From assembly GCA_964452935.1 (NCBI GenBank), contig CAYVNO010000009.1:2106-66105 (forward strand): a stretch of DNA of 64,000 nucleotides, read 5' to 3'. The notes beneath the pieces were generated by a model. It was given only the letters and a program-made list of their open reading frames with translations, was not told the origin of the DNA and searched no databases. How positions within the stretch are numbered: position 1 is the stretch's first letter; each line of letters opens with the position of its first letter. A program made the translations under genes and the position numbers. Shown here in pieces: positions 17,987-62,813 of this stretch. Source of the DNA: an uncultured Methanosarcinales archaeon (GTDB lineage Archaea; Nanobdellota; Nanobdellia; Woesearchaeales; DSVV01).

Positions 17987-19900
17987 CTATACTTCCAAAA
18001 CTTTATATCCACCATGAACAAGACCAACATATCTTTCTAACAAATCACTCTTCTCCTCTGGACTTCTAGCAGTAATAAAGCCTCTCATAAAACTCATTGT
18101 AAAATCATCATCAAGATCTTCAATCTCATCAACAATATTTCTAACCATTGCATCATATTGATATTTCTGTCTAAAAAAAGTGTGTTCCCCAACAACTTCA
18201 GGATGATCAGCAACAATCTCTCCAACTCTCAACACAGAAGCCCTTAACCCAAAATAAGGTTCAAACTCCTCTACATCCTCAACACCTTCACTAGCTTCAA
18301 TCGCAACAGAAACCCCCCTATAGTTTGCACCAAGATAATCAAGTAACTCATCCACATAAGTCGAATACCTACAACTCTCACCTCTAAAATGCATTAAATA
18401 AGAACTTAACTCCATCACAAACATACCCACAACATCCTCACGAGTATATTTATCCTCTGTTTTATCTACTTGATCTTCTAATTTCTCTTGAATTACCCAA
18501 GGAAGATCATTAACACAACTTCTAGATGGAGTAACAACCTGCCCTCCCTGCATAACCATGTCCACTAATGTATCCTCTCCATCATCAATATCATCTTGCC
18601 CATACCATTCATTCAACTCACCAGGAGTAATCAACGAATTAATTCTATCTTGAACACTTGATCTACGAATTACTCTACGAACTGGTTGTCTAGGAACTGT
18701 TCGATTATCTTGATCATACCAAAACCGCCCTGAACCTAGACTATTAATACCACCACCATAAAACCCTTCTTCTATAGGTTCAGTAGCACGTGTTTGCCAT
18801 ACATGAGGACCAACAACCAACCCTCCTGCTTGTGCATACCTACGACGAGGTATACGAGGTCTTGGTTTAGGAGGTAAAACAAGTCTCTCTTGAACCAAAT
18901 CACTAACTTCATCCATTGTAAGAACATGTCTTCCATCATCAAAAATCTCTATCGGCACATTTTCAACAGTACCATATTTCACCTGACCACTTAATTTATA
19001 TTTATCCTCATAAGCAATCTCAACATAAGGTTCTCCTAACTTATCATCATAAACAAAACTAAATGCAACACTAACTAACCTTGGCTCAAACGTCCTCTCA
19101 TCCATAATATCTAACAGTCTTGCAAAAAAATCAGATTTATTAAAACTATCAAGATCTGGTTTTAAACCAAAATCATTTAACAACGCAAAAAAAGCCTGAT
19201 CATTAGGAAAAACAAACTCCCTAACAAAATCCTCTAGATCATGTCCTCTCAAAACCTTACCTTCTTCAGTAAATTCTTCTTTTATCCTATCCTGAATCAA
19301 AAGATAAGGCGAATCAAACCTTTGCCTTGTTACCTCTGCCACTTTGTTAAGAAGTTTAGGAAACTCATGATCATCTTTTGAACTATGCTCAACACCACAC
19401 ACAGATCCTGGATGCACATGAAACATTCCACATAAAACAAAATCAGTCCCCATTTCACTATTTATCCTCTGCATCTCATAACCTGCCATCGGAAACTGCT
19501 CAGCAAATTTAACCCCATCTGTATAAACCTTTAACCCTTTTGGAACAACAAACTCAGATAAATCAAATGAAAAATCACCCCTAGTCATAGCATATAAACC
19601 ACCAGATTCAACAGGTCTATCATCAATCTCTCTTACAGCAACACCAATAGATTTACCAAACTGATAACATCTTCTTGATATCCTAACTTTTTCAGGAAGA
19701 TAATCAGTAACAGGAGGAATTACAGGCTTCTCTGGTCTACCTTCAAACCCAGTTATCATATCAAGAGCATGTGCAGCCATAGCACTATTAGTAAGAATAG
19801 AAGGTCCTGTAAAATCACAACTACCGCCAACACAACTATCTTCTTCTCTTTCACGTCTTCTTTTTTCAGACCTTCTCATTCTTGCTCCTCTACCACTCAT
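17987..19900 (-). CDS. JAB/MPN+ metallo-isopeptidase-domain protein
   Basis: VESGGLY ... GMFHVHP ... HSSKDD matches the E...HxH...SxxD JAMM motif; adjacent to the E1. Confidence 0.65.
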   Translation of the reverse strand: MSGRGARMRRSEKRRREREEDSCVGGSCDFTGPSILTNSAMAAHALDMITGFEGRPEKPVIPPVTDYLPEKVRISRRCYQFGKSIGVAVREIDDRPVESGGLYAMTRGDFSFDLSEFVVPKGLKVYTDGVKFAEQFPMAGYEMQRINSEMGTDFVLCGMFHVHPGSVCGVEHSSKDDHEFPKLLNKVAEVTRQRFDSPYLLIQDRIKEEFTEEGKVLRGHDLEDFVREFVFPNDQAFFALLNDFGLKPDLDSFNKSDFFARLLDIMDERTFEPRLVSVAFSFVYDDKLGEPYVEIAYEDKYKLSGQVKYGTVENVPIEIFDDGRHVLTMDEVSDLVQERLVLPPKPRPRIPRRRYAQAGGLVVGPHVWQTRATEPIEEGFYGGGINSLGSGRFWYDQDNRTVPRQPVRRVIRRSSVQDRINSLITPGELNEWYGQDDIDDGEDTLVDMVMQGGQVVTPSRSCVNDLPWVIQEKLEDQVDKTEDKYTREDVVGMFVMELSSYLMHFRGESCRYSTYVDELLDYLGANYRGVSVAIEASEGVEDVEEFEPYFGLRASVLRVGEIVADHPEVVGEHTFFRQKYQYDAMVRNIVDEIEDLDDDFTMSFMRGFITARSPEEKSDLLERYVGLVHGGYKVLEV

Positions 19901-19962
19901 TTTCCACACCTTTCCTCTGAAAAAATAATTCTTTTCTCAAACATTTGCACCAACTCCATAAA

Positions 19963-21441
19963 TTATGATCGAGCAGTCTTCATAACACGACCACTTCTAC
20001 TAACATGTTTAGGCAGCACATCATAAACCTCATAGCCATTACTCATCGCCTCTTCCCTTGTCAAAGGTTTAATACCATTTTTCTCAAAAACATCATCTAC
20101 CTGTCCTGGACCATAAACTAACCCAACAGGTTCATGCCTTTTTATAGAAGAAGGGTTTAGCTGATGTCTAATAACATCAACGCCTGCATTCAATTTTCTA
20201 ACTAACTCAGATGGAGAATCCCCATAACTACGATGATTAGCTCTTGAATCACAAATCGGATCAAAAGGCATTGGATCACGATGTTTAATCTCTAAACTAA
20301 GAACATGTTTAGCAGGATCAACAACAACAGGATCAGAACCTGAATACACCTTATTATTACGCCAATAACAAGATAACTTAAGAGCAATTTTCATAGAAGG
20401 GTATGGCCAATAATTCTCACCATTCCTGCCATCCTGTATCGCAAACTTAGGAATTTGTTTATAAACATAACATCCCTCATCACGCCTAATAAAACCACAA
20501 CCACCAAAATCATACTCTTGCTTTCCTAACAAAGCATTTATCATTTTTTCATCCAAAAAACTCCCTCTGCCTATTGAAACATGATTCTCAGTAGAATGTT
20601 CAAGTGCCTGAAAGTGTAAACCCTCAATCATCCTAGACATAAGCTGCTCTGTTAAGTTAGAAAAATAATAGGATACAGAGTTTGAAGGAACATAATATCT
20701 CCCATTTAACACAAAAACCATATCTCTTCTTCTCTTTGACGGAACATCACTCTGAGAAATCTTATTCAAAGTATACACCCTATTACTATTAACATATAAC
20801 GGCTGATGACCAATAATTCCTCCAAAAACAGACGGCAGAATATCACTTTCATTGAGTCCCATATCCTTCAAACCATATTTAACACCAACAACAGAATCTG
20901 TCTTTAACTCTTTTCTTTTTTTTTCTAAAAGTTGTTCTCTTAATCTTACATTAACTTCTGTCTCATCTGGTTCTCCAACACCAAACTCTTCCTCTAACCT
21001 TAGTCTCATCGTATTCCTAGCTCTCTCCAAAGGAGTCTCTGTCTCTGTCTCTCCAGTTAACTGTCTAAGCATAGCACTCCCCAAATCACCATATTGGGCA
21101 GCTACTAAGAATGGAACTAACTCATTAACTAAAAAACCAAGCACAAGAACAGAATATCTACCTGAACTATCAAGTTTAGATCTATACTGTCCAACAATAG
21201 AACGCTTAACAAAAGCATCACACTCTTCATCAATAGTTCTTCTTTGTGATTCAATATCTAAAGACTCAAAATAATGAAAAGGCATGGAAGAAGTCAAACC
21301 AAAAGATCTGTCACCAACAATAACTCTATGTAAAGAACCCCTATCATCAGAATCAGAAATACTATAAACTCTATCTCCAAAAAATACAAAAGAGGATTGC
21401 CTCTCGACAATCGCATCCAAAAAAGTTGTTATTTTTGTCAT
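19963..21441 (-). CDS. Hypothetical protein, possible C-terminal E2-like domain
   Basis: C-terminal YP...P.V....H......PICD recalls the UBC HPN..ICL region; operon context. Confidence 0.4.
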   Translation of the reverse strand: MTKITTFLDAIVERQSSFVFFGDRVYSISDSDDRGSLHRVIVGDRSFGLTSSMPFHYFESLDIESQRRTIDEECDAFVKRSIVGQYRSKLDSSGRYSVLVLGFLVNELVPFLVAAQYGDLGSAMLRQLTGETETETPLERARNTMRLRLEEEFGVGEPDETEVNVRLREQLLEKKRKELKTDSVVGVKYGLKDMGLNESDILPSVFGGIIGHQPLYVNSNRVYTLNKISQSDVPSKRRRDMVFVLNGRYYVPSNSVSYYFSNLTEQLMSRMIEGLHFQALEHSTENHVSIGRGSFLDEKMINALLGKQEYDFGGCGFIRRDEGCYVYKQIPKFAIQDGRNGENYWPYPSMKIALKLSCYWRNNKVYSGSDPVVVDPAKHVLSLEIKHRDPMPFDPICDSRANHRSYGDSPSELVRKLNAGVDVIRHQLNPSSIKRHEPVGLVYGPGQVDDVFEKNGIKPLTREEAMSNGYEVYDVLPKHVSRSGRVMKTARS

Positions 21442-21467
21442 CTATCATTCAATCCCTCTCAAAAAAG

Positions 21468-22178
21468 TTAAGCATGGTAATCCTCACGTCTTTGATAACC
21501 TTTTCCAGGACTAATCTCAGCTGATACAACCACATCGAGTGCACTATAAACTTCAATAGGTCTTCCTCCCCGCTCAATTAAAACATGATCTGAAGTCAGA
21601 TCTGATGTAGGTATTACTGCTGGATTACCATCATCTCCCCTAACAAATGTACACAATGTAAGGAAACTATTCAATGAAGAATTTCCTGTAACCTGTTGTC
21701 CATTTGCTGTAACTGTGTATCCATCATGATAAGCTCTAGGCCCTTGTTCTGCAATAACTGCCTTAATAAGAGGACCATCACCTGTTACCTCCTGTCTAAG
21801 TCTATCAACAGGCTCCCTTTGTAATCTATCATCGCCGAGAGTTCGTGCTTCAAAAAAAACAGTAGCTCCTTTTTTTACCGGTTCACCAATAGCATATTTA
21901 ATAACTTGTTCAGCAGTATAACCAAGAACAATATCCCTTTCATCTCCAGTAAAAGAGTATATAAATTTTGAATGCTCGCCACCGTCTTCACAACCTGAAT
22001 AAAAGTTTACCATAATTGGCGTATCACCTACATCTGCTAAACTAAGAGGTGTACTTGAAACATATGAGCTATCTTCTAAACTCCTTGCTCTTTTTCCTCT
22101 ACAATCATCAACCTGAGGTGCATCTTGTTTTGGACCACCTTTATTTTTTCTTCTCCTTCTTCTTCTTTTTTCTGCCAT
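21468..22178 (-). CDS. Hypothetical protein, possible beta-grasp ubiquitin-like modifier
   Basis: TAEQVIKYAI helix, YTVTANGQQV..SSL, final strand LDVVVSAE then PGKG plus a 9-aa extension; operon context. Confidence 0.4.
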   Translation of the reverse strand: MAEKRRRRRRKNKGGPKQDAPQVDDCRGKRARSLEDSSYVSSTPLSLADVGDTPIMVNFYSGCEDGGEHSKFIYSFTGDERDIVLGYTAEQVIKYAIGEPVKKGATVFFEARTLGDDRLQREPVDRLRQEVTGDGPLIKAVIAEQGPRAYHDGYTVTANGQQVTGNSSLNSFLTLCTFVRGDDGNPAVIPTSDLTSDHVLIERGGRPIEVYSALDVVVSAEISPGKGYQRREDYHA

Positions 22179-22235
22179 TTTTCTAAACCTCCCATATGAT
22201 TATCTTACTTTTCATTCACCACTTTTTCAAAATTA

Positions 22236-23219
22236 TTAAGATAAATTGTGATACTTAATCACTCCCCTATCTTTATATATAATGCCTGCTGTCATTACCT
22301 CATCAGGATCTCCATCAACACCTAAATCTTTCATTTGATAAACTAATCTTGTATCAAGATTTGGGTCAACATAAGTTACAACTGCAATATCCCACACCTC
22401 ATCTGGATCATCCATTGACGGTGCTTCAATAACATGCCTTAATACCAAAGGAACCTGAAAATCTTTTCTCCCAAAAATAGGGTCAGGAACAATTATATGT
22501 CCATCATTAGCACAATGAGTTCTCCATTCTCCTTTATTTAACCTACTTTTTTTAAGCTGATCTAATACAAGACTCTCCAAATGAAGATAGGATAACAAAA
22601 CCATATCCGGCACTCCTGGTCCTTTTGTTTGTAACCCGCCAGCACATGCAAACTCTTCATAATCTTTCCCAGCACCAGCACTGACACCTAGCGGATCACT
22701 AGTAATATCAAATTCCAAATCACCTAACCTAAAATTACCATCTAACTCATCAGCTGTCGGATAACCAGACGCAACAACAGGTATTTCCCTTTCTGAAGAA
22801 GAGCCCCAAGGATTTGCAAAACCTATAGCTCTTGCAGGACAATGTTCAGGATCTTCTGGCCTTCTAAAAAATACAAAACTCCCATCTCTATTTTCTGATG
22901 CTGCCCTATCAGCCTCTTCTTCAGCTGCTTTTGTCTTCATTCTTGCAGCCTGATCTAGCCATCCTTGTTGCATCCTATCAAAATAATCATCAATTGTAAC
23001 TCCTCTACCTAAAGTTCTATCAACATACCTCTCAACATAAAAATCAGCCCAGGTTTCACGACCAAGATGTATCCTATTATGACTATATGCTAAATAAACA
23101 GTAGGTCCACCATCCATAGACAACTCAACATGTGGTCCACCCTTTCTTCTAACAATTCTATGATTGACCTTATTCCTTTTCTTTGCTTTCTCATCTTGAA
23201 ACATTTTAGTCTGACCCAT
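22236..23219 (-). CDS. Hypothetical protein, first gene of the E1/JAB cluster
   Basis: 327-aa ORF co-oriented with the cluster; no family recognised. Confidence 0.6.
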   Translation of the reverse strand: MGQTKMFQDEKAKKRNKVNHRIVRRKGGPHVELSMDGGPTVYLAYSHNRIHLGRETWADFYVERYVDRTLGRGVTIDDYFDRMQQGWLDQAARMKTKAAEEEADRAASENRDGSFVFFRRPEDPEHCPARAIGFANPWGSSSEREIPVVASGYPTADELDGNFRLGDLEFDITSDPLGVSAGAGKDYEEFACAGGLQTKGPGVPDMVLLSYLHLESLVLDQLKKSRLNKGEWRTHCANDGHIIVPDPIFGRKDFQVPLVLRHVIEAPSMDDPDEVWDIAVVTYVDPNLDTRLVYQMKDLGVDGDPDEVMTAGIIYKDRGVIKYHNLS

Positions 23220-23351: not shown

Positions 23352-25760
23352 TCACTTTTTCTCTTCAACTAAATCAATCTCAATATTAAACTTCCCAACC
23401 TTATAAGAAATAATCTTTGCCTTTGTTGTAGCAATTAAATCATCTTTCACAGATTCCAACATCTTTTTTTCATCAGAAGAACAAGTAATACTTAAAACCT
23501 CAATCTCTGTTTTCAAAGAAACCTTTGCATCTGATTTCATTTTCCTAACAGCTGCAACAACATCAACCATTAAATCCCCAACCTTCTCAACATCTTCATC
23601 AATCAACTTAACATCAGACTCTGGCCATTTAGAAATATGAATACTATCGCACTTCTCTTTCTTAGAAAAGTATTGTTGATAAACACCCTCAGTTACATAA
23701 GGCATTATTGGTGCTAATAATTTCAAACATGTTAAAACAGAAGTGTATAAAGTAAACTGCGCAGATTCCCTAGCTTTTTTTCCTCTTTTCTCAACATTAT
23801 ATATCCTATCTTTGATAATTTCTAAATAATTATCACAAAGAGTATGCCAGAAAAACTTCTCAACATTCATCTTTGTTTTTGCATACTCATACTCTTCAAA
23901 AGTATCTGTACTATCAATAATAATTCTATTTAGTTTTGATAACATCCATCTATCAATAACTTCTAACTCACATTTTTTAGGAGTGTAATCCGTCAAATGC
24001 ATTAACGCAAACCTTGAAGCATTCCAAAGCTTTGTTACCATTTTTTTACCAGTAACAATATCTTTTTCCTGATAAGGTAAATCTTCTCCTAACTTCGAAC
24101 CAGCAGCCCAAAATCTTAAAGCATCTGCCCCATATTTCTCAATAACCTCTTGAGGCCTAACAACATTCCCTTTACTTTTGCTCATCTTTTTCCCTTTTGG
24201 GTCTAAAGCAAAACCAGAGATCATAATATTTTTCCAAGGATTTTTATTTTCATGTAATTGTGACTTCACCATTGTATTAAACAACCAAAAGGTGATAATA
24301 TCATGTGCTTGGGGTCTTAAATCCATCGGAAATAATTTTTTATAAACAGAACTTCCTTTCATAAGTTCAACTGCTAATTGTGGTGTTAACGACGAAGTTG
24401 CCCAAGTATCCATAACATCCCCTTCTGGCTCAAACTTATCACTTCCGCATTTACATTTCTTCTTTGGTTTATCAACTAACGGATCCACTGGAAGATCTTT
24501 AACATTAGCAATTATAATCTCTCCGCAACTCTTACAATACCAAACTGGGAATGGAACACCATAATGTCTCTGTCTAGAAATACACCAATCCCATTGCAAA
24601 CCTTTGATCCAGTGATCTAATCTAACTTTCATATATTCCGGAAACCATTTCATCTGTTTCCCGCATTCAAAAAAATGATCTTTCAAATCTAAATATTTAA
24701 TAAACCACTGCTTTGTATTCAGAATCTCAACCTCTGTTCCACATCTTTCATGAACATTAACAGGGTGAGTAATTTTTTTCTCCTTAACCAATAAGTTATT
24801 CTTTCTTAAATCTTCAATAACTTCTTTTCTTGCCTCTTTTAATTTCAAACCCTCATATTTTCCTGCATTTGCATTCATCTTTCCATCTTCTGTTACTGAC
24901 ATTATTAGAGGTAACTTATGGGCTTTATACCATTCAATATCTGTCTGATCTCCAAAAGTACAACACATTACAACACCAGTTCCTTTTTCAGGATCAGCTT
25001 TCCTATCCGCAATAATTGGAACCTTTCTCTCAAACAAAGGAACTCTTGCCTTCTTACCAATAATCTGTTTATACCTTTCATCGTCAGGATTAACAAAAAC
25101 AGCAACACAACTTGACAACAACTCAGGTCTTGTCGTAGCTATAATTAAATCACAATCATCCATCTTGAAAATAATATCATTAAACTGACTCTCTAACTCC
25201 TTATCCTCTAACTCAACTTGTGCTATGGCAGTTTGGCACTGAGGACACCACATTGTTGGCGCCTCTTTTCTATACTCTCTTCCTGCTTTATACAAATCAA
25301 TAAAAGATTTCTGAGAAATTCTTCTTGAATGTTCATCAATAGTTGAATAAAAAATATCAAAATCACAACTTATTCCAATTTTTTTCCAATCTTCAATATA
25401 TTGTGGCCTTAATTTATCAATTGTTTTCAAACAGAGTTTAATAAAATCCTGTCTTTTCATCCTCTTTGACTTTACTTTATTCATCTTCTCAACAAGTTTC
25501 TCTGTTGGCAACCCATTATCATCAGTACCAAAAGGATAGAAAACATTAAACCCTTTCATTCTTTTATATCTAATAACAAAATCTTGTTGAGCATAACTGA
25601 ATGCATGACCCATATGCATCTCCCCTGAAACAGTCGGAGGAGGAGTATCTACAGAATAGATTGGCTTCTTACTAGTAGGATTAAACTTAAAGATGTTTTT
25701 ATCTTTCCAAAAAGCCTGTATCCTTGGCTCATCTGATTTAAAGTCATATTTGTCTTGCAT
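23352..25760 (-). CDS. valS: Valine-tRNA ligase (archaeal type)
   Basis: DTPPPTVSG, HMGH, DWCISRQR, LRPQAHDII, KMSKS. Confidence 0.97.
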   Translation of the reverse strand: MQDKYDFKSDEPRIQAFWKDKNIFKFNPTSKKPIYSVDTPPPTVSGEMHMGHAFSYAQQDFVIRYKRMKGFNVFYPFGTDDNGLPTEKLVEKMNKVKSKRMKRQDFIKLCLKTIDKLRPQYIEDWKKIGISCDFDIFYSTIDEHSRRISQKSFIDLYKAGREYRKEAPTMWCPQCQTAIAQVELEDKELESQFNDIIFKMDDCDLIIATTRPELLSSCVAVFVNPDDERYKQIIGKKARVPLFERKVPIIADRKADPEKGTGVVMCCTFGDQTDIEWYKAHKLPLIMSVTEDGKMNANAGKYEGLKLKEARKEVIEDLRKNNLLVKEKKITHPVNVHERCGTEVEILNTKQWFIKYLDLKDHFFECGKQMKWFPEYMKVRLDHWIKGLQWDWCISRQRHYGVPFPVWYCKSCGEIIIANVKDLPVDPLVDKPKKKCKCGSDKFEPEGDVMDTWATSSLTPQLAVELMKGSSVYKKLFPMDLRPQAHDIITFWLFNTMVKSQLHENKNPWKNIMISGFALDPKGKKMSKSKGNVVRPQEVIEKYGADALRFWAAGSKLGEDLPYQEKDIVTGKKMVTKLWNASRFALMHLTDYTPKKCELEVIDRWMLSKLNRIIIDSTDTFEEYEYAKTKMNVEKFFWHTLCDNYLEIIKDRIYNVEKRGKKARESAQFTLYTSVLTCLKLLAPIMPYVTEGVYQQYFSKKEKCDSIHISKWPESDVKLIDEDVEKVGDLMVDVVAAVRKMKSDAKVSLKTEIEVLSITCSSDEKKMLESVKDDLIATTKAKIISYKVGKFNIEIDLVEEKK

Positions 25761-25824
25761 AGTTTAAAAAGAACACATTGAATATTTATAAATTTAATGG
25801 AAGAACTACAAAGCCAACACATGC

Positions 25825-25921
25825 GACACTGCTGTCAAGCGAAGTCCAAATTTTCAACATTAAACTTATTATAATTACTAAACACATCAAACCACTCAAT
25901 AGAACGGAGCACAGCAGTGTC
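25825..25921. repeat. 11-bp inverted repeat in the valS/sigma divergent intergenic region
   Basis: GACACTGCTGT (25825-25835) and ACAGCAGTGTC (25911-25921). Confidence 0.6.
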
Positions 25922-26006
25922 ACGAACCAAAGCCATTGGCATAGTCTCTAAATCAATATAAACAATATAGTATATATTTATAAATAAACCCCAATTACTT
26001 TAATAT

Positions 26007-27671
26007 ATGGGAATCGGAGATATAACCACAGACATGGATGATAATCTAGAATATATGGAACAAGAAGAACTAGAAGAAGCAAGTGATCTAGAAGAGATAG
26101 ACGATGCAGAAAACCCTGTTGACATACCAAAAGAAGGAGAAGTATCAGAAGGAGACAACGGTTCATCAGTTGGCTTAGAAGCATTAACTCATATCTATAG
26201 AAAGCAGCTAGAACCACAAGAAAGCCCATATGAAAAAGAACATAAAAAAGCAGATAGAGAAGAAATATCTAAAAGCCCAACATATGCATATATGAGGGGG
26301 ATGGGAAAATATCCACTCTTATCAAGAGATGATGAAATAGAACTAGCAAAAAGAATAGAAGCTGGCCTAACTTACGGAGAATTTATTCTTATAAATGAAG
26401 AAACACTAGAATACGCAGTAGAAGCATACATAACAGCAGTTGTAAAAAAACCAAAAGATGAAAAACCAATTAGAGAATATGTTGAAAATGCAGAAACATC
26501 TGACGCAGTTATATATGTAAGAGAATTATATGAAGCCGAAAAAAGACAACACGGCAAAAGAGTTCCTGCATTAAATCAGTTAAGAAATCAAATCTATGCT
26601 TATTTCAAAGAAGCAGTTCTAGAACAAATAACAGCAGAAACTGTAGAGACAACCGCAAGTTTTTTTCATAGAAAAAGTGGAAGAAGAGAAAGAGAAGCAT
26701 ACATCAGCGAACTAGGAACAAATAAGCATAATACAAAAAGAATAGTAGAAACAACTAAAAAATATGCTAGAACACTACCAATCCACAAATTATTCGAATT
26801 ATACCAAGAACTAGATGAAAGACATGATAACGGGAATAACACATTAGACACAATAACAAGTATGCACCTTTTTGAAAGAAGAAATATATACAACGATAAA
26901 CTAGGAAATTATAAAACACATGATAGTCTTGCAGCAAAAGAAGATTTAATAACGGCAAATCTCAGACTTGTCGTAAGTATCGCAAAAAGATACACATATC
27001 ATGGAATCCCACTTTTAGATCTAGTCCAAGAAGGAAATATAGGTTTAATGAGAGCTACTGAAAAGTTCGAACACCGAAGAGGATACAAATTCTCAACATA
27101 TGCTCATTGGTGGATCAGACAAGCAATAACTAGATCAATCGCAGACACAAAAGGAACAATAAGAATTCCTGTACACCTAAGAGAAGTAATAAATAAAATA
27201 GACAGATTTGAGAGAAATTTCTTAACAACTGAAGGAAGAGGACCAACTATAGATGAAATCGCAGCCCAGATAGAAAAACCACTCAAAAAAACAAAAGAAA
27301 TCCTAGAATCCATGAGACTAGGAAAAACATACTCATTAGATGCAAAACCTTCAGGAACAGGAGAAGAAGAAACAAGTACGCTCGGAGATTTTATACCAGA
27401 CACTAATGTAGCTAGTTCAGATGAAATATTAACAGAAAATCAACTCCGTGATAGAACAAGAGAAGTACTCTCAAAACTAACACCAAGAGAAGAAAGAGTT
27501 CTAAGATTAAGAATGGGGATAGGAGTAGAAGGTGGAACCCAATCACTAGAAGAAGTAGGACAAGAATTCCAAGTAACAAGAGAAAGAATCAGACAAATAG
27601 AAGCAAAAGCATTAAGAAAACTCAGACACCCCTCTAGAGCTGAGCTACTGAGAATATTTGCTGAAGACTAA
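26007..27671 (+). CDS. rpoD: RpoD-like (group 1) sigma-70 factor
   Basis: Region 1.2 [24 protein letters not shown]; region 2 [28 protein letters not shown]...[15 protein letters not shown]; region 3 IRIPVH; region 4 [28 protein letters not shown]. Confidence 0.93.
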
Positions 27672-27709
27672 ACAATAAACTTAATAAATCACTCATTCTT
27701 CCAATTTCT

Positions 27710-28930
27710 ATGGACAATTCTAACCAACCATGGATTCATAAATATAAACCAAACACTCTAGAACACCTAGAAGCACACAAAGAAGCAGTTAGATCTTTAA
27801 AACTATTCATAAACAATTTCAAAAAAGAAAGAAAAAAAGCAGTTCTAATTCATGGACCTTCTGGCTGCGGGAAAACAGCAGCAGCTCACGCATTAGCAAA
27901 CGATCTAAACATAGAAATCATTGAAATAAATGCATCTGATGTTAGAAATGAAAAAGCAATCTCTTCATTACTAGGAAACGTAACAAAACAACAATCATTA
28001 TTCTCAAAAGGAAAAATCATTCTTGTAGATGAAATTGATGGAGTTTCTGGGAAAAAAGACAGAGGAGGAATTAACGCATTAGTTTCAATAATAAAAACAA
28101 CAGGGTTCCCAATAATAATGACTGCACAGAATCCGTACGATAAAAAATTCAATAAACTAAGAACAGCCTCAACATTAATACAATTCGAACCATTAGATTA
28201 CATGTCTGTATTCAATATCCTAAAAAGAATTTCAAGAGAAGAAGATATAAAACACAACGACACAGACGTGAAAGTACTCTCTAGATATATCGGCGGAGAC
28301 GCAAGAGCAGCAATAAACGATCTACAAACATTAACACAATCAAAAAAAGAGTTAACAAGAAAAGATATCGACACATTAGCACAAAGATTCCAGACAGAAT
28401 CAATTCTAAAAGCTTTAGTAAAAGTATTCAAAGTTACTGATCCACAAATCGCACAAAGAGCATTTGATAATATAAACGAAGACTTTGATCAAACAATGTT
28501 ATGGCTAGATGAAAACCTCCCAACAGAATACAAAGATCCAGAAGATCTAGCAAGGGCATACGATTGTCTAAGCAGAGCAGATGTTTTTAGAGGAAGAATT
28601 AGAAGATGGCAGTATTGGAGGTTTCTTGTTTATATGAAAAACATGATGACATCAGGCGTGGCTTTAAGCAAAAGACAAAAATATCCTGGCTTCACATCAT
28701 ACAAACCTACTCAAAGAATTCTCACACTATGGAAAGCAAAGATGAAATACATGAAAAGAAAAGCCATAGCAAAGAAAATAGCAGAAAAAACACATTCTTC
28801 ATCAAAAGAGGTAATTCAAAACACACTCCCATTCATAAAAGAGATGATAAAACAAGACCAAAAAATGGCTTCTGAACTAGAAGAATACTTTGACTTAGAC
28901 AAAGACGAAGTAATGTGGATGAAGAGATAG
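27710..28930 (+). CDS. rfcL: Replication factor C large subunit
   Basis: PWIHKYKP, GPSGCGKT, EINASD, DEIDG, GDARAAINDLQ, WLDEN, GRIRRWQYW. Confidence 0.95.
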   Translation: MDNSNQPWIHKYKPNTLEHLEAHKEAVRSLKLFINNFKKERKKAVLIHGPSGCGKTAAAHALANDLNIEIIEINASDVRNEKAISSLLGNVTKQQSLFSKGKIILVDEIDGVSGKKDRGGINALVSIIKTTGFPIIMTAQNPYDKKFNKLRTASTLIQFEPLDYMSVFNILKRISREEDIKHNDTDVKVLSRYIGGDARAAINDLQTLTQSKKELTRKDIDTLAQRFQTESILKALVKVFKVTDPQIAQRAFDNINEDFDQTMLWLDENLPTEYKDPEDLARAYDCLSRADVFRGRIRRWQYWRFLVYMKNMMTSGVALSKRQKYPGFTSYKPTQRILTLWKAKMKYMKRKAIAKKIAEKTHSSSKEVIQNTLPFIKEMIKQDQKMASELEEYFDLDKDEVMWMKR

Positions 28931-29124: not shown

Positions 29125-29394
29125 ATGGCAAAAACAATACAAATCGAAAAAACACATTCCCCCACATTAAATACTATCTATATGGTAGAGGAAACACTAA
29201 AAGATGGAGAATTAATAACACTCGCAGAATTAAAAAGAAAACTTCCAAAGAAAGTTATGCACAACACATTACTACAAATACTTGATTATCTACAAATCAG
29301 CGGGAAAATATTAATTGGTACAAAAGGAATACTATGGATTTTTACAGAAAGAAAAGAGCTGAACAGATTAATAGAAAAAGGAACAGAGGTTTAA
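29125..29394 (+). CDS. Winged-HTH protein, probable antitoxin
   Basis: PTLNTIYMVE..ITLAELKRKLPKKVMHNTLLQILDYL; directly upstream of a RelE-like ORF. Confidence 0.65.
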   Translation: MAKTIQIEKTHSPTLNTIYMVEETLKDGELITLAELKRKLPKKVMHNTLLQILDYLQISGKILIGTKGILWIFTERKELNRLIEKGTEV

Positions 29395-29705
29395 CTAGAA
29401 ATATAAGAATCATTCTCCTAGACAACGCAGAAAAAATATACAAAACAACAAAAGATAAGAAATTACTCAATTCTATAAAACAAAAGATTGAATTTATCAA
29501 AAACAACCCATTCTATGGAAATAATATACCAAAAGACAGAATGCCAAGAAGTTACAACTGTCAAAACCTGTGGAGAACTCATTTACATGACTACTGGAGA
29601 CTATTATATACAATCAAAGGAGATGAAAAAGAAATAATATGCTTCATCGTAGATATTCTCAACCATAAAGATTATAATAAGAAATTCGGCTATAGAAAAA
29701 AGTGA
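29334..29705 (+). CDS. RelE/ParE-like toxin (start uncertain)
   Basis: IEFIKNNPFYG, NLWR..L..YWRLLYTI, IVDILNHKDY. Confidence 0.6.
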   Translation: MDFYRKKRAEQINRKRNRGLTRNIRIILLDNAEKIYKTTKDKKLLNSIKQKIEFIKNNPFYGNNIPKDRMPRSYNCQNLWRTHLHDYWRLLYTIKGDEKEIICFIVDILNHKDYNKKFGYRKK

Positions 29706-32470: not shown

Positions 32471-33415
32471 TTATTTCAGCGTTGTTATAGGCCTTGACTG
32501 TAAGATATATATCTTATCCTTAAAAGCCCACTCAATATCCTGAGGAAAGTCATAATGATCTTCAATCAATCTGCCAATAGATGTTAATTCCATAATCTCT
32601 TCTGGATTCAAAACTTCTTCTTCACCATGAAAAATATCAACTTTCTCTGTCTTTCCATCTTTCTTAAATAATCCCCACTCTTGATTATTTATGTGCTTTT
32701 GGTTAGAAACTCCATTCTTTTTATCAACCATATAACTATCTGGAGTAATTGAACCAGATACCAAAGATTCACCTAACCCATAAACTCCTTCAATAACCAT
32801 CTCTTCCCTGTTATTTGTAACAGGATTCACAGTAAACATAACTCCAGCCTTATCCGCGTCAACCATTACCTGGATAACAACAGCTATCAATACATCCTCA
32901 TGCTCAAAATTATTCTTTTCCCTATAAAAAATAGCCCGTGGAGTAAACAGCGAAGCCCAACACCTTTGCACATCCCTGATAACATTCTCCACACTTCTAA
33001 CATTCAAATACGTATCCTGCTGACCAGCAAAACTTGCCTCAGGCAAATCTTCAGCAGTTGCAGAACTTCTTACAGCAACAAACTCAAACCCCTCCTCTAA
33101 CAAAACATTATATGCTGCACTAACTTCATCTTTAATATCTGCTGGTATTTCCTTAGCTAAAATCAATTTTTGTATCTTTTTAGAAGCCCTATCTAACTGT
33201 TTAGTGTCTTCAATATTTAATTTCGCTAAAATAAAATTAATTTCATCTTTTATCCCAACACTTTTAATAAATTTTTCATACGTTTGTGCAGTTACACAAA
33301 AACCATTTGGAACAGGAATATTATTATTAAATAATTCACCCAGATTAGCACCTTTTCCACCAACTACTCCCACATCATTCTTCCCTATATCTTTAAACCA
33401 TAAAATATCCTTCAT
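32471..33415 (-). CDS. Stand-alone ATP-grasp (PEP synthase N-terminal) dikinase subunit
   Basis: VGGKGANLGEL, VPNGF, AVRSSATAED..ASFAGQQDT, GLGESLVSG..PD, PQDIEW, ILQSRPIT, then stop: no His domain and no PEP-binding barrel. Confidence 0.93.
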   Translation of the reverse strand: MKDILWFKDIGKNDVGVVGGKGANLGELFNNNIPVPNGFCVTAQTYEKFIKSVGIKDEINFILAKLNIEDTKQLDRASKKIQKLILAKEIPADIKDEVSAAYNVLLEEGFEFVAVRSSATAEDLPEASFAGQQDTYLNVRSVENVIRDVQRCWASLFTPRAIFYREKNNFEHEDVLIAVVIQVMVDADKAGVMFTVNPVTNNREEMVIEGVYGLGESLVSGSITPDSYMVDKKNGVSNQKHINNQEWGLFKKDGKTEKVDIFHGEEEVLNPEEIMELTSIGRLIEDHYDFPQDIEWAFKDKIYILQSRPITTLK

Positions 33416-34545
33416 TTTTTACCATCCCAACTCTCTCCTTCAACCTTTTTCGCAGGACATCCTGCCCAATGTTCCCCAGAAGGAACATCTTTTAGAACAA
33501 CACTATTATCGTCGATAACAGCGTTCTTTCCAACAGTAGTTCCAGCCCTTATTAATACATCATGACCAATTCTAACATCATCTCCAATAATGGTTCTACC
33601 ATACATTGAATAATTAACCCCATACTCGTGGCCATCGATATATCCTCCCTTACCAATTGTCGCATTATCTCCAATTGAAATATATTCTGGATGAATATGG
33701 TCTGGCATAGAATTTCTTCCAATAAAAACATTCTTCCCTATCTTCACACCAACCATTCTATAGGCCATTTTCTTCAAAAATTGTATTCCTAATAGATTAA
33801 AAAACTCCATAACCATACCATTCAAATAAATCCTTAAAACATTCCTTGCTCTCCACCAATCATTTCCAGCATTTCCTCTATCTCCACCATAAAGAATCTT
33901 AATCAATCTCTCAGACTTATTTTTTCTAAAATCATCTTGCTTCTTTTTAGCTGTTTCATAATACTTTTCAGGCTTTTCTCCACTCATCTTAAAATATTTA
34001 TCAATTTCATCCTTAGAGAACTTCTTAATCAATCTTGCATCCTTTGATCCCCAAAACTCTCCTTCCTTAGTCTCTCCCCTCATATTAGTGTATAATCCAA
34101 CAATACTATTCTTATTAACATAACTCCCAGGATATAACTTAGCACCGCCAGAAACCAACACATTCTCATCTACAAAAATCTTCCCTAAAACCAACTTTAG
34201 CTTCCCATCTTCCTCTTTAAACTCATGTGCATAATACTGGCTCAACCCACCAATTAATGTATTTCCTTTGATAGTTATCAACTCAGGAAAATAAACATCA
34301 AAATAATTATACATAGGGATACAAACTTCATCTCCTAAATTCAAACCAGTAGACTTCAACAAGAAACTCTTAAACCACATTGGAGGTATTTTTTGTGTAA
34401 CAATAACAACTAATTTATTATACCAAGCCCTAAAAGGCCTTAAATTGATATTCTTCTTATTAGAAATCTCAATCTCGACAACCCTTTTCTTCCCATCTAA
34501 TAACTCTTTCAAAGCATTCTTTATTCTTTGTTTGTCTTGATTCAT
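33412..34545 (-). CDS. Tandem left-handed beta-helix acetyltransferase with two YvoF-like units
   Basis: Two units: FDVYFPELITI..N.LIG....AHEF and PDHIHPEYISIG.NATIG....GHEY, plus hexapeptide repeats and KDVP...WAGCPA. Confidence 0.75.
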   Translation of the reverse strand: MNQDKQRIKNALKELLDGKKRVVEIEISNKKNINLRPFRAWYNKLVVIVTQKIPPMWFKSFLLKSTGLNLGDEVCIPMYNYFDVYFPELITIKGNTLIGGLSQYYAHEFKEEDGKLKLVLGKIFVDENVLVSGGAKLYPGSYVNKNSIVGLYTNMRGETKEGEFWGSKDARLIKKFSKDEIDKYFKMSGEKPEKYYETAKKKQDDFRKNKSERLIKILYGGDRGNAGNDWWRARNVLRIYLNGMVMEFFNLLGIQFLKKMAYRMVGVKIGKNVFIGRNSMPDHIHPEYISIGDNATIGKGGYIDGHEYGVNYSMYGRTIIGDDVRIGHDVLIRAGTTVGKNAVIDDNSVVLKDVPSGEHWAGCPAKKVEGESWDGKK

Positions 34546-36038
34546 TTCATCACCCTAACTACACCATGATTAGCATTTACTTCAACTAAATCTCCTGTCT
34601 TTAAAACTTTTGTTGCAATTTTAGTACCAATTATACATGGAATTCCTAATTCCCGAGAAACAATAGCTGCATGACACGTCAACCCACCTTCATCTGTAAC
34701 AACAGCCACACTCTTTTTCATTGCTGGTAGAAACTCAGGTCTTGTCATAGTTGTCACAAGCACACAACCTTCCTCAACTTTCTCAATATTCTTAACATTC
34801 TTACAAACATTAACCTTACCAACAACCTTCCCAATAGAAGCACACATCCCATTAATCTCTTTCATATCATCGTCCTGCTTCTGTTTGTCTAACATTTTAA
34901 TAAATTCATCAAAGTCCTTACCAATTAAAATACTCCTATCCTTGTTAACATAAACAAAAGCACTCTTTTTCCTTCTTTCTGCAAGCATCTTCTCATCAAC
35001 ACCATCCAGAACCTCATCAGGCAATAAATATTTCAAATTCTCAGATTTCGTATTCTTCCTTCTTGCAATCTCCATAACATACTTCTCCATTGCCACACAA
35101 CCTTTTAAAACCAGAATTTTTCTATCATCCTGCCAATAAGTCACAAACTCGGTTAAATCTAAATACATCTTTAACTCATCAGACAACTCAAGCTCTTTAT
35201 ACAACCTTTTTTTATTCTCAACATTCTCTTTTAACACATTCTCATCTATAAATGGAATATCATCATTCATTTTAATATGCTCTTTCAAATCATTAACTAA
35301 ACCATCAACATCCAATTCCTTGCCACCTGCCCATGTAGCTTTAATCCAAGAAAAGTCCTTCACAAATCTCCCAACTAATTTCTTCAATTCCCCTTCAACA
35401 ATAATTTCATCGACAGAAGAATCATTAAACATTTTCAATAATTTATTATCTTGCCTAATCAACTCAAGCATCTTATGTAACATATTATTGATATCCATAT
35501 TAAAGGATCTCTTAGTTGGCTGAGATAATAAGGTGAAATAAGTTGTAAATTCCTTTTCTAACTTTTTCTTCTGTAAATCTTTTAATAACAAGTCCTTAAC
35601 TAAAACATCAGTTGTTAGAGCAAACCCTTCAATTGCATGAGAAGTATCAAAAGCACCATAAAACAATTTAGAAAATTCAACATACCCTTTAAGTAGTCTA
35701 TCATCACTCAACTCATTAATCTTAGACAACTTAGTTTTAATATGATTTAACATAGGTTTACCTTCTTCTTTACTCTGATTCCATAAAAATTTAGTATAAT
35801 CCTTATCTTTTTTATACCTCTTAACAATATTATCTGCCACATTATGAAGATCTGCCCTATTATAATACAAATCACAATAATCATCTCTATAAATCATAAT
35901 AAACTTTGAATGATTAAACCCCAAAGACTTCTTCATACCAAAAATAGCAGTAACAGGACCAGCATGAATAAAAGCAGGCACTGCATTAATCCCCTGCACA
36001 TACCATCTTTCCTTTACTAATAATTTGAATTTCTTCAT
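34542..36038 (-). CDS. Variable domain + phospho-His swivel domain protein (paralog 1 of 13)
   Basis: WQDDRK; DEGGLTCHAAIVSRE. Confidence 0.85.
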   Translation of the reverse strand: MKKFKLLVKERWYVQGINAVPAFIHAGPVTAIFGMKKSLGFNHSKFIMIYRDDYCDLYYNRADLHNVADNIVKRYKKDKDYTKFLWNQSKEEGKPMLNHIKTKLSKINELSDDRLLKGYVEFSKLFYGAFDTSHAIEGFALTTDVLVKDLLLKDLQKKKLEKEFTTYFTLLSQPTKRSFNMDINNMLHKMLELIRQDNKLLKMFNDSSVDEIIVEGELKKLVGRFVKDFSWIKATWAGGKELDVDGLVNDLKEHIKMNDDIPFIDENVLKENVENKKRLYKELELSDELKMYLDLTEFVTYWQDDRKILVLKGCVAMEKYVMEIARRKNTKSENLKYLLPDEVLDGVDEKMLAERRKKSAFVYVNKDRSILIGKDFDEFIKMLDKQKQDDDMKEINGMCASIGKVVGKVNVCKNVKNIEKVEEGCVLVTTMTRPEFLPAMKKSVAVVTDEGGLTCHAAIVSRELGIPCIIGTKIATKVLKTGDLVEVNANHGVVRVMK

Positions 36039-37484: not shown

Positions 37485-37543
37485 TCATAAACACCTTTTC
37501 TCAATAAACTCTCTCAAATATATAAATATTATGCCAGAAACAG

Positions 37544-42233: not shown

Positions 42234-43181
42234 ATGGGAGTAATTAAAGATGAAAGAATAAAGCATCAAAGAGTTATTTATATTGAACCAAAAAATCTAG
42301 AAGGAGATATGGGACTAGATGAAGTTGTTGATTCTCTAAGAGCAGAAGGAGTTGATGTTAGATACTTACAAGATGAAGCAAATTTTGAAGTTCTAGAAGG
42401 AGATGTATCACCAAAAGATGCTTGTACAAGAACAAAAATTCTACTTAAAGAAATCAATGGACATCAAAGAGCACTTAAATATGCAGTAGGAAAAAAGAAA
42501 GAATGGCAAAGAGTTATGGAACAAATTGGTGGAGAAATTGAACAAGAAGGAATTGATATAGAAATAAAAGATCACATAGAATTAAATGAAGACTTTGTTC
42601 CAAAAGGAGATTATACTAAATTCTTAGGGTACAATGGAAGCGGAAAATCCTTCTGTATGATCCTAGAAACAAAAGGAGACATATGGGAATCACTAGATCA
42701 TTCAATAAATGAAATGGGTAAAAAAACTAGCAAAGACTTAGAAGGAATAGAAGCACGTGTCGTGTTTATAGCATTCCATACTCAACTAGAACAACACAAA
42801 GACAAAAAACCATTGCTAGGTTATGAACTAGTTTTCAAATACGGTGAAGACAAAAAACCACAAGTAGATATTTATGAAGTAACAATAGATGAGCTAGAAC
42901 CAGAAGAAGGATCACCAGTAGTTAACAGAGAAAGAAGTGTAACAGAAACAAGAAGTTTAAACCCATCAACAGAACAAACAGAGATATTGAATACATACAC
43001 AAAAGCTTCAATGGTTTTTGCTAGATATCTAAGATCAAAACTACATGAATTAGAAGGACTAGGAAGATCACTAAGAAACAGAACAAGGGATGCATGGACA
43101 GCATACAACAGTGAACCAGAAACAGAAAGAGACAGAATATTCCAAACAGATGAAGCAGTCCATTACAAACAGTGGACTTAA
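42234..43181 (+). CDS. Hypothetical protein
   Basis: 315-aa ORF with a GGAGGG SD; no family recognised. Confidence 0.7.
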   Translation: MGVIKDERIKHQRVIYIEPKNLEGDMGLDEVVDSLRAEGVDVRYLQDEANFEVLEGDVSPKDACTRTKILLKEINGHQRALKYAVGKKKEWQRVMEQIGGEIEQEGIDIEIKDHIELNEDFVPKGDYTKFLGYNGSGKSFCMILETKGDIWESLDHSINEMGKKTSKDLEGIEARVVFIAFHTQLEQHKDKKPLLGYELVFKYGEDKKPQVDIYEVTIDELEPEEGSPVVNRERSVTETRSLNPSTEQTEILNTYTKASMVFARYLRSKLHELEGLGRSLRNRTRDAWTAYNSEPETERDRIFQTDEAVHYKQWT

Positions 43182-52510: not shown

Positions 52511-52511
52511 C

Positions 52512-56435: not shown

Positions 56436-56488
56436 ATAAATAACAATACTAAATTCATATATAAACTTTATCAAGAATAAGTATAGAG

Positions 56489-56623
56489 GAATTGCTATTT
56501 GTGTCCTCAGGTCGAAATTCAATAAAATAGCTGGAGATAGTTCGTTGTGAGGGGTTGCTCCCTACGGGAACACAGAACTTTAGAAAATATCATACAGAAT
56601 TTCGAAGACACTTTTAGCAATTC
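56489..56623. ncRNA. Candidate 135-nt rod-shaped structured RNA or palindromic element
   Basis: Nested stems GAATTGCTA/TAGCAATTC, GTGTC/GACAC, TCGAAATTC/GAATTTCGA, AGTTC/GAACT, TGTG/CACA, TCCC/GGGA. Confidence 0.45.
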
Positions 56624-62758: not shown

Positions 62759-62785
62759 ACGTAGCTCAGACTGGGAGAGCGCTAG

Positions 62786-62806: not shown

Positions 62807-62813
62807 ACTGAAG

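Follow-up and report, generated by a model that had tools for sequence, protein, structure and literature searches.

Textbooks treat sigma factors as a hallmark of bacterial transcription; archaea initiate with TBP and TFB. In bacteria, regions 3.0 to 4.1 of sigma touch the core enzyme and the RNA exit path, and region 1.1 keeps free sigma from binding DNA. Plastid sigma factors encoded in the nucleus, and those of phages, act on a polymerase whose genes lie elsewhere. In DPANN archaea, sigma-70 homologues were first noted by Rinke et al. in 2013, as PMC6126073 relates, and the accessible text of Castelle et al. (2021; PMC8204110) describes sigma-70 genes as prevalent in Woesearchaeota (family fam00359). 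As far as that text goes, these homologues lie among archaeal genes, beside TBP, TFB and the archaeal polymerase, and have no known anti-sigma partner. In the literature we found no functional study of an archaeal sigma.

We analyzed a window of 64,000 nucleotides (contig CAYVNO010000009.1 of assembly GCA_964452935.1, positions 2,106 to 66,105) from an archaeon that GTDB places in the Woesearchaeales. Like the published homologues, the sigma gene described here sits among archaeal genes in a genome encoding TBP, TFB and the archaeal polymerase. It differs from them in an N-terminal half that has no close relatives and in its place between valS and rfcL, which is specific to the lineage. Sigma genes in Woesearchaeota are already published and the occurrence is not unique; it is less novel than the first-pass annotation had assumed (PMC8204110). 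Publications of 2013 and 2021 already describe the phenomenon, and the present gene is a further case. The gene is real and intact, is a member of the sigma-70 family, descends from a bacterial ancestor and has become domesticated in its Woesearchaeota-type (DPANN) archaeon; it belongs to the widespread, fast-evolving and already reported set of sigma homologues of this phylum.

Architecture of the protein and its likeness to RpoD

The gene (26007-27671, + strand) is an ATG-start open reading frame of 554 amino acids, with no stop inside its 554 codons and a group-1-like order of four Pfam sigma regions. Region 1.2 (residues 94-120; 26286-26366) matches Sigma70_r1_2 (PF00140) with 43.8 bits. 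Region 2 (residues 314-382; 26946-27152), which contains the clamp-helix-binding helix 2.2, the melting residues and the -10/-12 readers, matches PF04542 with 76.2 bits. Region 3 (residues 393-473; 27183-27425), including the acidic 3.2 linker or 'finger', matches PF04539 with 40.5 bits, and Region 4 (residues 487-541; 27465-27629), with the -35 recognition helix, matches PF04545 with 56.4 bits. The sigma-70 family is recognized by regions 2 and 4, and groups 1-2 by regions 1.2 and 3 in addition; all four score above their gathering thresholds, and the gene is intact and complete as the first-pass annotation had it. The superfamily model TIGR02937 (NCBIfam) gives 115 bits at a cut-off of 42.9. 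The label 'primary sigma-70' was overstated: the architecture is primary-like, yet no RpoD/SigA equivalog cut-off of NCBIfam is reached, the best being PRK05658 with 397 against 555 bits; TIGR02393 (RpoD_Cterm) gives 298.8 against 354.

The first 90 residues (26007-26276) form an acidic tail that resembles Region 1.1 by charge alone. Residues 1-60 hold 22 D+E and a single K+R, in line with the acidic N-terminus described before, and the protein has no Pfam match to the Sigma70_r1_1 domain (PF03979), a match that one archaeal relative (L020) does have. Between regions 1.2 and 2, the divergent non-conserved region noticed at first pass (residues 121-305; 26367-26921) has no Pfam match and is set apart as lineage-specific. 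With the N-terminal 305 residues as query against 1.84 billion representatives, the only match at E<=1e-10 was the protein itself; six weak matches (E 4e-6 to 9e-4) mostly covered the area of region 1.2. For residues 121-305, clusters of N-terminal or non-essential-region sigma sequences came up as weak atlas leads (scores 0.87-0.90). An N-terminal half of 305 residues without close relatives appears, from these searches, to be new here. A single-sequence AlphaFold2 model of the whole protein has a mean pLDDT of 37.8.

The remainder is closely RpoD-like. Residues 308-554 align with residues 373-613 of E. coli sigma-70 (HMMER), with 276.7 bits to RpoD chains and 55% identity over 249 aligned residues, and against bacterial RpoD the C-terminal half reaches 51-60% identity. 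The order of parts (region 1.2, non-conserved region, then 2, 3 and 4) is that of E. coli RpoD (PDB 4jk1 and others). The protein is identical to E. coli RpoD for -10, extended -10 and -35 reading and for melting, and for most activator-contact residues. The numbers we use for the E. coli residues that read the -10, extended -10 and -35 elements and melt DNA are those we take to be the established ones. At 18 of 18 region-2 positions checked the E. coli residue is present, D403, Q406, E407, N409, Y430, W433, W434, Q437, T440 and R441 among them; Y425, H455 and E458 are also identical. W433 and W434 are the WW melting residues of the first-pass annotation, and the -35 recognition helix that it named is likewise there, in Region 4, the equivalents of R584, E585, R586, R588 and Q589 being unchanged. 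From bacterial group 1 sigma factors the protein differs in having an acidic tail only, with the region 1.1 domain not detected.

The same residues are kept in nearly all of the 34 archaeal homologues. The E. coli residue is found in 34/34 (D403), 31/34 (Q406), 32/34 (E407) and 33/34 (N409). Y430, W434 and R441 are present in all 34, W433 and Q437 in 33 each; R584 occurs in 32, and E585, R586, R588 and Q589 in 34 each. Our protein keeps the bacterial consensus at 89 of the 106 columns whose conservation among the bacterial sequences is 90% or higher; these sequences come from 80 loci, all bacterial, a sample biased to Clostridia and to query likeness (best-segment identity 46-58% in most loci, 37-38% in three). 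This retention of functional residues, in the 34 homologues and at the 89 columns, points to selection on function. Regions 3.0-4.1 are relaxed: agreement with the bacterial consensus is 0.36-0.41 in archaeal copies against 0.62-0.76 among bacteria, and Region 3 is the most relaxed of all. The pattern, with promoter-reading and clamp-binding residues kept and regions 3.0-4.1 relaxed in archaeal copies, is, in these alignments, new here.

The insertion site and its surroundings

The gene lies between archaeal valS (23352-25760, - strand; NF009687, 1090 bits, cut-off 738) and rfcL, encoding the replication factor C large subunit (27710-28930, + strand; NF003229, 393 bits, cut-off 280), and is 38 nt from rfcL (spacer 27672-27709), the placement given in the first-pass annotation. 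Named relatives of rfcL are from Woesearchaeota or Nanoarchaeota. In 10 of 27 same-family relatives valS adjoins rfcL directly, with gaps below about 830 nt, and in none of the 27 does a sigma gene stand beside rfcL. The sigma gene thus sits inside a pair that adjoins directly in relatives, which is new here. The relatives' own sigma genes showed no synteny with valS or rfcL, apart from a weak valS-like fragment at one locus (L023).

Had a piece of bacterial DNA been attached to an archaeal contig during assembly or binning, such a gene would result, but nothing apart from the oddity of the gene and the low run depth (about 3-7) speaks for this. The contig (67,427 bp, without N) is even in composition throughout. 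In contigs assembled run by run from separate public runs, at this depth, the valS-sigma junction is spanned by 684-nt contigs of runs X3 and X4 (25528-26211) and the sigma-rfcL junction by contigs of X1 (26909-28894), X2, X3 and X4, in each case with 0 differing letters. The continuity of the junctions, which the first-pass annotation had asked to see, is therefore there, and the chimeric assembly that it named as its own undoing finds no footing. Codon use is host-like, the promoter is putatively of archaeal type, and most same-family relatives (18/24) have the same gene family. An artefact is refuted as far as contigs can show, and we regard it as highly improbable. What has been required of DPANN sigma genes against mis-binning, sigma-70 domains together with archaeal markers, is found here with valS and rfcL on the same contig and both junctions bridged.

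The gene being an insertion relative to the relatives' valS-rfcL, we considered that it belongs to a mobile element, a provirus or a defence system, for example as the MzaA-like sigma of the MZA anti-phage system. MzaA models do match (340.9 bits in NCBIfam, 200 bits in PADLOC), and left of valS five ORFs without Pfam, PADLOC or PHROG match (13620-16484, 17987-19909 and three at 19963-23219) surround a ThiF/E1-like gene (16486-17964) that matches E1-E2 models. The protein shares the sigma core with MzaA, and the NCBIfam match also spans its N-terminal half (residues 75-553); the score, however, falls far short of the cut-off (800) and is also lower than the RpoD score (397), and the PADLOC match is limited to the shared sigma core (residues 310-553). 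Mza components were found in 0 of the 9 neighbours tested, the ThiF-like ORF being the sole neighbour with any match. At the site there is no integrase and no tRNA, flanking repeats are short, low-identity pairs at chance level, and both immediate neighbours are housekeeping genes. We hold an origin of this kind to be very unlikely.

Distribution and history of the gene

In the phylum, 167 of 401 genomes have a PF04542 match, as do 145 of 281 genera, and sigma homologues occur in 18 of 24 same-family genomes; the distribution in DPANN, left for checking at first pass, is accordingly broad. Absence from relatives had been named as a ground against the claim. The homologues in 18 of the 24 genomes favor the claim, whereas the finding that no relative (0/27) carries the gene at the same locus goes against it. 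The archaeal copies that we found are at most 58% identical to our protein, which in the phylum survey has a region-2 score of 80.3 bits, among the 15 highest of the matches listed, and by this score it is one of the most RpoD-like archaeal copies. Of 8000 candidates scored from 5.8 billion clusters, the top 120 include none that is more than 60% identical, so a recent donor is not among the sampled sequences; with the nearest homologue at no more than 58-60% protein identity, synonymous sites are saturated.

For the tree we used non-duplicate matches of at least 200 query residues with at most 4 bacterial rows per taxon, and one locus (L028) was left out of part of the analyses. The protein pairs with the copy of a same-family genome, G002 (SH-aLRT 89, a branch that is not starred). 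In the free tree the archaeal copies do not form a single clade and the starred branches force at least 2 changes of domain, yet the AU test does not reject their union in one clade (p-AU 0.078), so that the tree singles out no donor and gives no count of transfers. Archaeal end branches are 0.2-2.0 long, those of bacterial RpoD 0.0-0.5. G004, the closest genome by rfcL (67%) and A' (83%), has only weak sigma matches. Together with the lack of synteny with the relatives' copies, this is also what an accessory or transient gene would show.

These data bear on whether the gene is a neutral or decaying passenger, acquired again and again from bacteria or from other DPANN, drifting and then lost, with the present copy functionless. 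The patchy distribution over 167/401 genomes, the lack of a conserved sigma locus, the long archaeal end branches, the at least 2 domain changes on starred branches and the missing close copy in G004 are what such a history would leave. The intact frame of 554 codons, a fully host-like synonymous codon use and a strong archaeal TATA box at the modal position are not, nor are substitutions that spare functional residues, 89/106 consensus columns being kept at 55% identity to E. coli, or the want of a donor above 60% identity among the candidates inspected. We consider a passenger quite unlikely.

Codon use agrees with this. Ranked among 1434 crude ORF-based gene calls, the gene has a synonymous-codon score at the 74th percentile, and its GC content is 0.346 against a genome median of 0.332, with GC3 at 0.177 (8th percentile of the genome's genes); the codon style is that of the genome's genes, as had been noticed for the neighbors, and host-like codon use argues for long residence. 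Upstream lies a putative archaeal TATA box, TTTATAAATA (25971-25986, + strand), starting 30 nt before the ATG, with a PWM score of 10.25 bits (85th percentile of 825 gene upstream regions). Genome-wide, TATA-like hexamers are most frequent in the -30 bin (427, against about 30-115 elsewhere), and the box being at the modal position suggests an archaeal-type promoter. The spacer before rfcL has a weaker TATA-like box, TTAATAAATC, at -29 (PWM 6.25 bits, 64th percentile of the same 825 regions); co-transcription of rfcL with the sigma gene was dropped on account of this box in the 38-nt spacer. The archaeal contig and genome, the bridged junctions, the ameliorated codons, the predicted TATA box and the relatives' homologues together bear out the retained horizontal acquisition proposed at first pass.

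Possible roles in an archaeal cell

The host genome (89.96% complete, 0.76% contamination) encodes an archaeal RNA polymerase A' (1164 bits, cut-off 819), a polymerase B split into B'' and B', TBP and two TFB genes. It holds one Rpb1_1 match, one Rpb2_1 match and a single sigma region 2. Searches with Rpb1_1, Rpb2_1 and the alpha-CTD in this 89.96% complete genome found no bacterial core polymerase and no bacterial alpha-CTD. Bacterial group 1 sigma factors have their core enzyme in their own genome, while none was found beside the archaeal sigma, whose gene instead has a putative archaeal TATA promoter and whose genome shows no excess of -35/-10 promoters. Near-consensus TTGACA-N16-18-TATAAT occurs 35 times upstream of genes against 33.5 +/- 5.9 in shuffled sequence (39 of 100 shuffles reach 35), and TTGACA ranks 66th of 180 same-composition hexamers upstream of genes. 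Perfect matches to TTGACA-N16-TATAAT precede rpl2 and hutU by 64-66 nt, one each; on both strands of the whole genome there are 5 perfect -35/-10 sites, against ~4 by a rough base-composition estimate. No sigma regulon is visible in the genome, and the absence of a -35/-10 promoter excess is new here.

Our preferred reading, which carries about half of our confidence, is that the protein is a sequence-specific factor acting on the archaeon's own transcription at few targets. Domain 2 would read a -10-type element of DNA and domain 4 a -35-type element. In one version, helix 2.2 would dock on the clamp coiled-coil of A', homologous to the bacterial beta' clamp helices, and sigma would work alongside TBP and TFB as an accessory factor of initiation; in the other it would bind DNA alone, as repressor or activator. 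Each version takes about half of the preferred reading. In either version the targets would be few and the bulk of promoters would not be served, as the lack of a -35/-10 excess upstream of genes suggests.

Docking is argued against by A' itself. R275, E295 and A302 of E. coli beta', which we take to be critical for sigma binding, align to I246, L266 and H273. A complex prediction with alignments (residues 88-392 of sigma, N-terminal 420 of A') gave 0.03 and 0.19, at a mark of 0.32, and carries no weight either way. Binding to DNA alone is argued against by the acidic N-terminus, which resembles region 1.1. The retained W433/W434 and helix 2.2 speak against action on the archaeon's own transcription as a whole: they would be expected for a bacterial-type core, and none is encoded. 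A more specific proposal, unlikely in our estimate, is hybrid initiation beside TBP/TFB, in which sigma would dock via helix 2.2 on the A' clamp and open few -35/-10-type sites, and would be fitted to the archaeal polymerase by its lineage-specific N-terminal half.

Alternatively, sigma could be handed to a bacterium, whether partner or prey, or could meet a bacterial core in fused or bridged cells, and compete with or replace the resident sigma. To our knowledge no bacterial host of this archaeal group is known. All residue classes for a bacterial holoenzyme (helix 2.2, melting aromatics, -10/-12 and -35 readers) are kept in our protein and in nearly all 34 homologues, and the archaeon's genome does not encode a bacterial core for them. 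The best PHROG match, phrog_351 (305 bits), is a viral sigma family. Plastid and phage sigma factors are likewise carried by a genome whose polymerase does without them, but their bacterial-type target polymerase is known, in the same cell or in a host, and for the archaeal sigma none is known. The available text of PMC8204110 leaves bacterial hosts of some DPANN open. No export signal is evident in the protein, whose N-terminus is acidic and not hydrophobic; its predicted specificity is that of a housekeeping sigma, which would redirect little, and the core- and RNA-exit-contacting regions 3.0 to 4.1 are the most relaxed in archaeal copies. We judge action on a bacterial polymerase unlikely.

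The gene at 26007-27671 is well suited to testing, being intact, very RpoD-like, short enough to express and preceded by a clear, though predicted, archaeal promoter. A sigma family retained by roughly four of every ten genomes sampled from the phylum, with its DNA-reading and clamp-binding residues constrained, would mean either that the archaeal polymerase can use sigma or that these cells act on bacterial polymerase. Either outcome, if true, would change how DPANN biology is read.

A sigma-70 gene between valS and rfcL

Positions 26007-27671 of the plus strand form one open reading frame of 554 codons, starting with ATG and encoding a sigma-70 family protein. Pfam matches above the gathering scores place region 1.2 at residues 94-120, region 2 at 314-382, region 3 at 393-473 and region 4 at 487-541, with no family matching residues 121-305. 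The first 60 residues include 22 acidic and one basic residue. Comparison with solved structures aligned the C-terminal 247 residues with residues 373-613 of E. coli sigma-70 without large gaps (276.7 bits), two segments of 16 and 22 residues being nearly or fully identical. The left neighbour is an archaeal-type valS (NF009687, 1090 bits) and the right neighbour, 38 nucleotides away, is rfcL, encoding the replication factor C large subunit (NF003229, 393 bits). The first-pass annotation had described the frame, the four regions, the acidic N-terminus, the two flanks and the 38-nt spacer correctly, as it had every checkable detail. Its term "primary sigma-70" holds for the build, which has regions 1.2, 2, 3 and 4, but not for the class: no curated RpoD model was reached (best score 397 bits, cut-off 555) and RpoD_Cterm gave 298.8 bits, below its cut-off of 354. 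Since these cut-offs were missed, we regard the gene as primary-like in build rather than as a certified RpoD.

The contig, which holds the window at 2106-66105, is 67,427 bp long, has zero N and a GC content of 0.335, in line with the other contigs of the assembly (1.66 Mb, 49 contigs, 89.96% complete, 0.76% contaminated). The genome encodes archaeal RNA polymerase subunit A' (1164 bits, cut-off 819), a B subunit split into B'' and B', TBP and two TFBs. Rpb1 domain 1 and Rpb2 domain 1 gave one match each, and a bacterial alpha C-terminal domain was not found in this 89.96% complete assembly. Named relatives of the rfcL product, at 52-58% identity, are 'Candidatus Woesearchaeota archaeon' and 'Nanoarchaeota archaeon'.

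The junctions were checked in four (X1-X4) of the eight public DNA runs, from two studies, that contain this stretch. Contigs of 684 nt in X3 and X4 span 25528-26211, covering the valS start, the spacer and the sigma start, and the sigma-rfcL junction is spanned in X1 (26909-28894), X2 (26909-27871), X3 (27461-27780) and X4 (27523-27758), all with zero differing letters. Because contig boundaries are common to X1/X2 and to X3/X4, each pair may be one data set filed twice, and the four runs are taken as two read sets, one possibly being the source of the assembly. The loose ends seen at 25540-25572 and 27600-27631 come from other organisms, whose conserved valS and sigma segments match here over 32-33 nt. 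The chimeric assembly that the first-pass annotation had raised was thus not found; the sigma gene is the archaeon's own, and an artefact is hardly credible.

In synonymous-codon score the gene ranks at the 74th percentile among 1434 crude ORF-based gene calls of this genome, in agreement with the codon style of its neighbours noted earlier. Its GC is 0.346 (median of gene calls, 0.332) and its GC3, 0.177, is below that of most genes. In 727 upstream regions of the genome, TATA-like hexamers number 427 in the -30 bin and about 30-115 in other bins, which is the archaeal pattern. A weight matrix trained on these sites (consensus TTTATATATA) detected a TATA box, TTTATAAATA, at -30 of the sigma gene (10.25 bits, 85th percentile of 825 genes); valS carries an identical 10-mer at -32, and rfcL a weaker TTAATAAATC at -29 (64th percentile). 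Codon use and the box at -30 together predict that the gene is set up for transcription by the archaeal machinery.

Placement and surroundings

valS divergently adjoins rfcL in 10 of 27 same-family relatives, with gaps of ~0 to about 820 nt, and none of the 27 has a sigma gene within 1.5 kb of rfcL. Here the sigma gene occupies the 1949 nt that separate the two start codons. Read most simply, it was relocated to or inserted at this site once the lineage had diverged from the sampled relatives. A search of the site for element ends, an integrase or a tRNA yielded none, and membership in a mobile element or defence system seems very improbable.

Other features of the window are recorded here in their own right. 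Thirteen tandem paralogous ORFs of 328-525 aa (34542-40473, 43178-52534 and 53575-56522 on the minus strand; also 32471-33415) each end in a PEP-utilizers mobile domain (PF00391), preceded by about 250-450 residues without Pfam match; among them lie one PPDK_N-only ORF and a phosphotransacetylase gene (52512-53492). Such an expansion is unusual for a 1.66-Mb genome. Five large ORFs (954, 640, 492, 236 and 327 aa; 13620-16484, 17987-19909 and 19963-23219, minus strand) matched nothing in Pfam, PADLOC or PHROG; they flank a ThiF/E1-like gene (16486-17964) weakly matching PADLOC E1-E2 models, and GC is slightly raised there (0.36-0.385). What looks like a type II toxin-antitoxin pair, in which a small ORF and a YoeB/ParE-like toxin ORF overlap (29125-29705, plus strand), separates rfcL from the gene of a 918-aa UPF0182 membrane protein. 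Rfam places a tRNA match across 143 nt (62759-62901, plus strand) at 29.5 bits, which narrowly exceeds the gathering score; this may be an archaeal tRNA gene with an intron, and ARAGORN found no tRNA in the window. Plus-strand GC skew is strongly negative over minus-strand genes and ~0 over plus-strand genes, and this tracking of gene strand points to a marked purine-rich coding-strand bias.

Distribution and history

The sigma-70 family gene of this Woesearchaeota-type archaeon is real and intact and has adapted to its host; genes like it are widespread in the phylum and have been described before. The protein as query matched in 26 of 41 genomes including its own (18 of 24 in the same family, 7 of 16 in other families of the order), and identity reached 58% over residues 310-547 in the best archaeal copy. 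Pfam region 2 matched 167 of 401 genomes of the phylum (three of the 401 are flagged unpublished) and 145 of 281 genera; matches exceeded the cut-off in 162 genomes, with two to seven in many. PMC8204110 describes this family (fam00359) as particularly prevalent in Woesearchaeota, rules out mis-binning for DPANN sigma-70 genes and reports no anti-sigma factors; a passage of PMC6126073 credits the first description of archaeal sigma factors to Rinke et al. 2013. A 2025 paper still says that archaea are without sigma factors.

Relatives' copies are often much longer and keep the order 1.2, spacer, 2, 3, 4; additions are unannotated N-terminal extensions (ORFs up to 1763 aa), ~320-residue C-terminal extensions and extra helix-turn-helix units. 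Very long fused ORFs occur at loci L185 (G337:C5), L186 (G009:C6), L007 (G017:C153), L019 and L191, including one of 1763 aa with about 1475 unannotated N-terminal residues and two of 1117 and 1141 aa with about 320 residues beyond region 4; further copies have HTH_3/HTH_31 or MarR-like matches that are weak and below threshold. In several genomes of the phylum, two to three region-2 matches spaced 1-3 kb or less from one another (G228:C3:17754-20145, G186:C6:9594-11686, G189:C31, G207:C42, G313:C48, G358:C8) are tandem sigma paralogues. In the genome under study, ORFs of 69 and 261 aa with further, weak Sigma70_r4 matches just above cut-off (C21:629-760, 25.2 bits; C20:29230-29370, 24.7 bits) may be stand-alone region-4-like HTH proteins.

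Among 5.8 billion protein clusters, of which the 8000 candidates sharing most words with the query were scored and the 120 best listed, the top matches are bacterial RpoD, with 51-60% identity confined to the C-terminal half; the N-terminal 305 residues matched only themselves among 1.84 billion representatives at E<=1e-10. Identity to same-family relatives is, by comparison, 71-83% for A' and 44-67% for RfcL; sigma evolves faster than these two and has not shared their course of inheritance. The genome closest by both (G004) has only weak sigma matches. A maximum-likelihood tree of regions 2-4 (quick search; 35 archaeal rows and 37 bacterial rows biased to Clostridia and query-like sequences; rooted on E. 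coli RpoS) placed archaeal copies on long branches around and inside a compact cluster of bacterial RpoD. The query's partner in this tree is the copy from same-family G002 (support 89, unstarred). The starred branches require two or more changes of domain, yet one clade of all archaeal copies was not rejected against the free tree (p-AU 0.078).

Residue constraint and promoter census

We tabulated 34 archaeal homologues (one from the unpublished G359) in E. coli numbering, with residue roles as in the sigma-70 literature. The E. coli residue is kept in helix 2.2, the contact to the beta' clamp helices (D403 34/34, Q406 31/34, E407 32/34, N409 33/34), at the melting and -11A residues (Y430 34/34, W433 33/34, W434 34/34, F427 33/34), at the -12 readers (Q437 33/34, R441 34/34) and in the -35 helix (R584 32/34; E585, R586, R588 and Q589 34/34 each); the query has it at every one of these positions. 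In a second count, which omitted G359 and took in the query, the 106 columns whose conservation in the bacterial sample is 90% or more divide in archaea into 42 at >=90%, 40 at 60-90% and 24 below 60%; the query keeps 89. Relaxed columns concentrate in regions 3.0, 3.1, 3.2 and 4.1 (agreement 0.36-0.41 in archaea, 0.62-0.76 in bacteria), whose limits are approximate. By this pattern both DNA-reading modules and the clamp-binding helix are under constraint, and the linker/'finger' and flap-side surface are not. That the gene is a neutral passenger appears quite unlikely.

The clamp coiled-coil of archaeal A' can be aligned with E. coli beta' 262-309; however, the beta' residues R275, E295 and A302, critical for sigma binding, correspond to I246, L266 and H273. 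PMC8204110 leaves the mechanism of DPANN sigma-70 open and raises bacterial hosts for some DPANN as a question. That the protein is an effector on a bacterial polymerase we consider unlikely. Our literature search found no functional study of an archaeal sigma.

Upstream of the genome's genes TTGACA occurs 23 times, ranking 66th of 180 same-composition hexamers and no commoner than others. There are 35 near-consensus -35/-10 pairs, where dinucleotide shuffles give 33.5 +/- 5.9 (39 of 100 reach the observed count), and the whole genome has five perfect pairs, about as composition predicts. None of these counts shows an excess, which speaks against the protein serving its own genome as a general sigma. 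Two perfect TTGACA-N16-TATAAT sites, at C7:10189 and C10:13123, precede the genes for ribosomal protein L2 and urocanase by 64-66 nt.

We give roughly even chances to the sigma influencing transcription in the archaeon itself, at a small number of sites, whether bound to the A' clamp or as a free DNA-binding regulator; part of the probability is allotted neither to this reading nor to its rivals. To the family, this gene adds its insertion site, an orphan N-terminal half, a residue-level constraint pattern and a negative promoter census.
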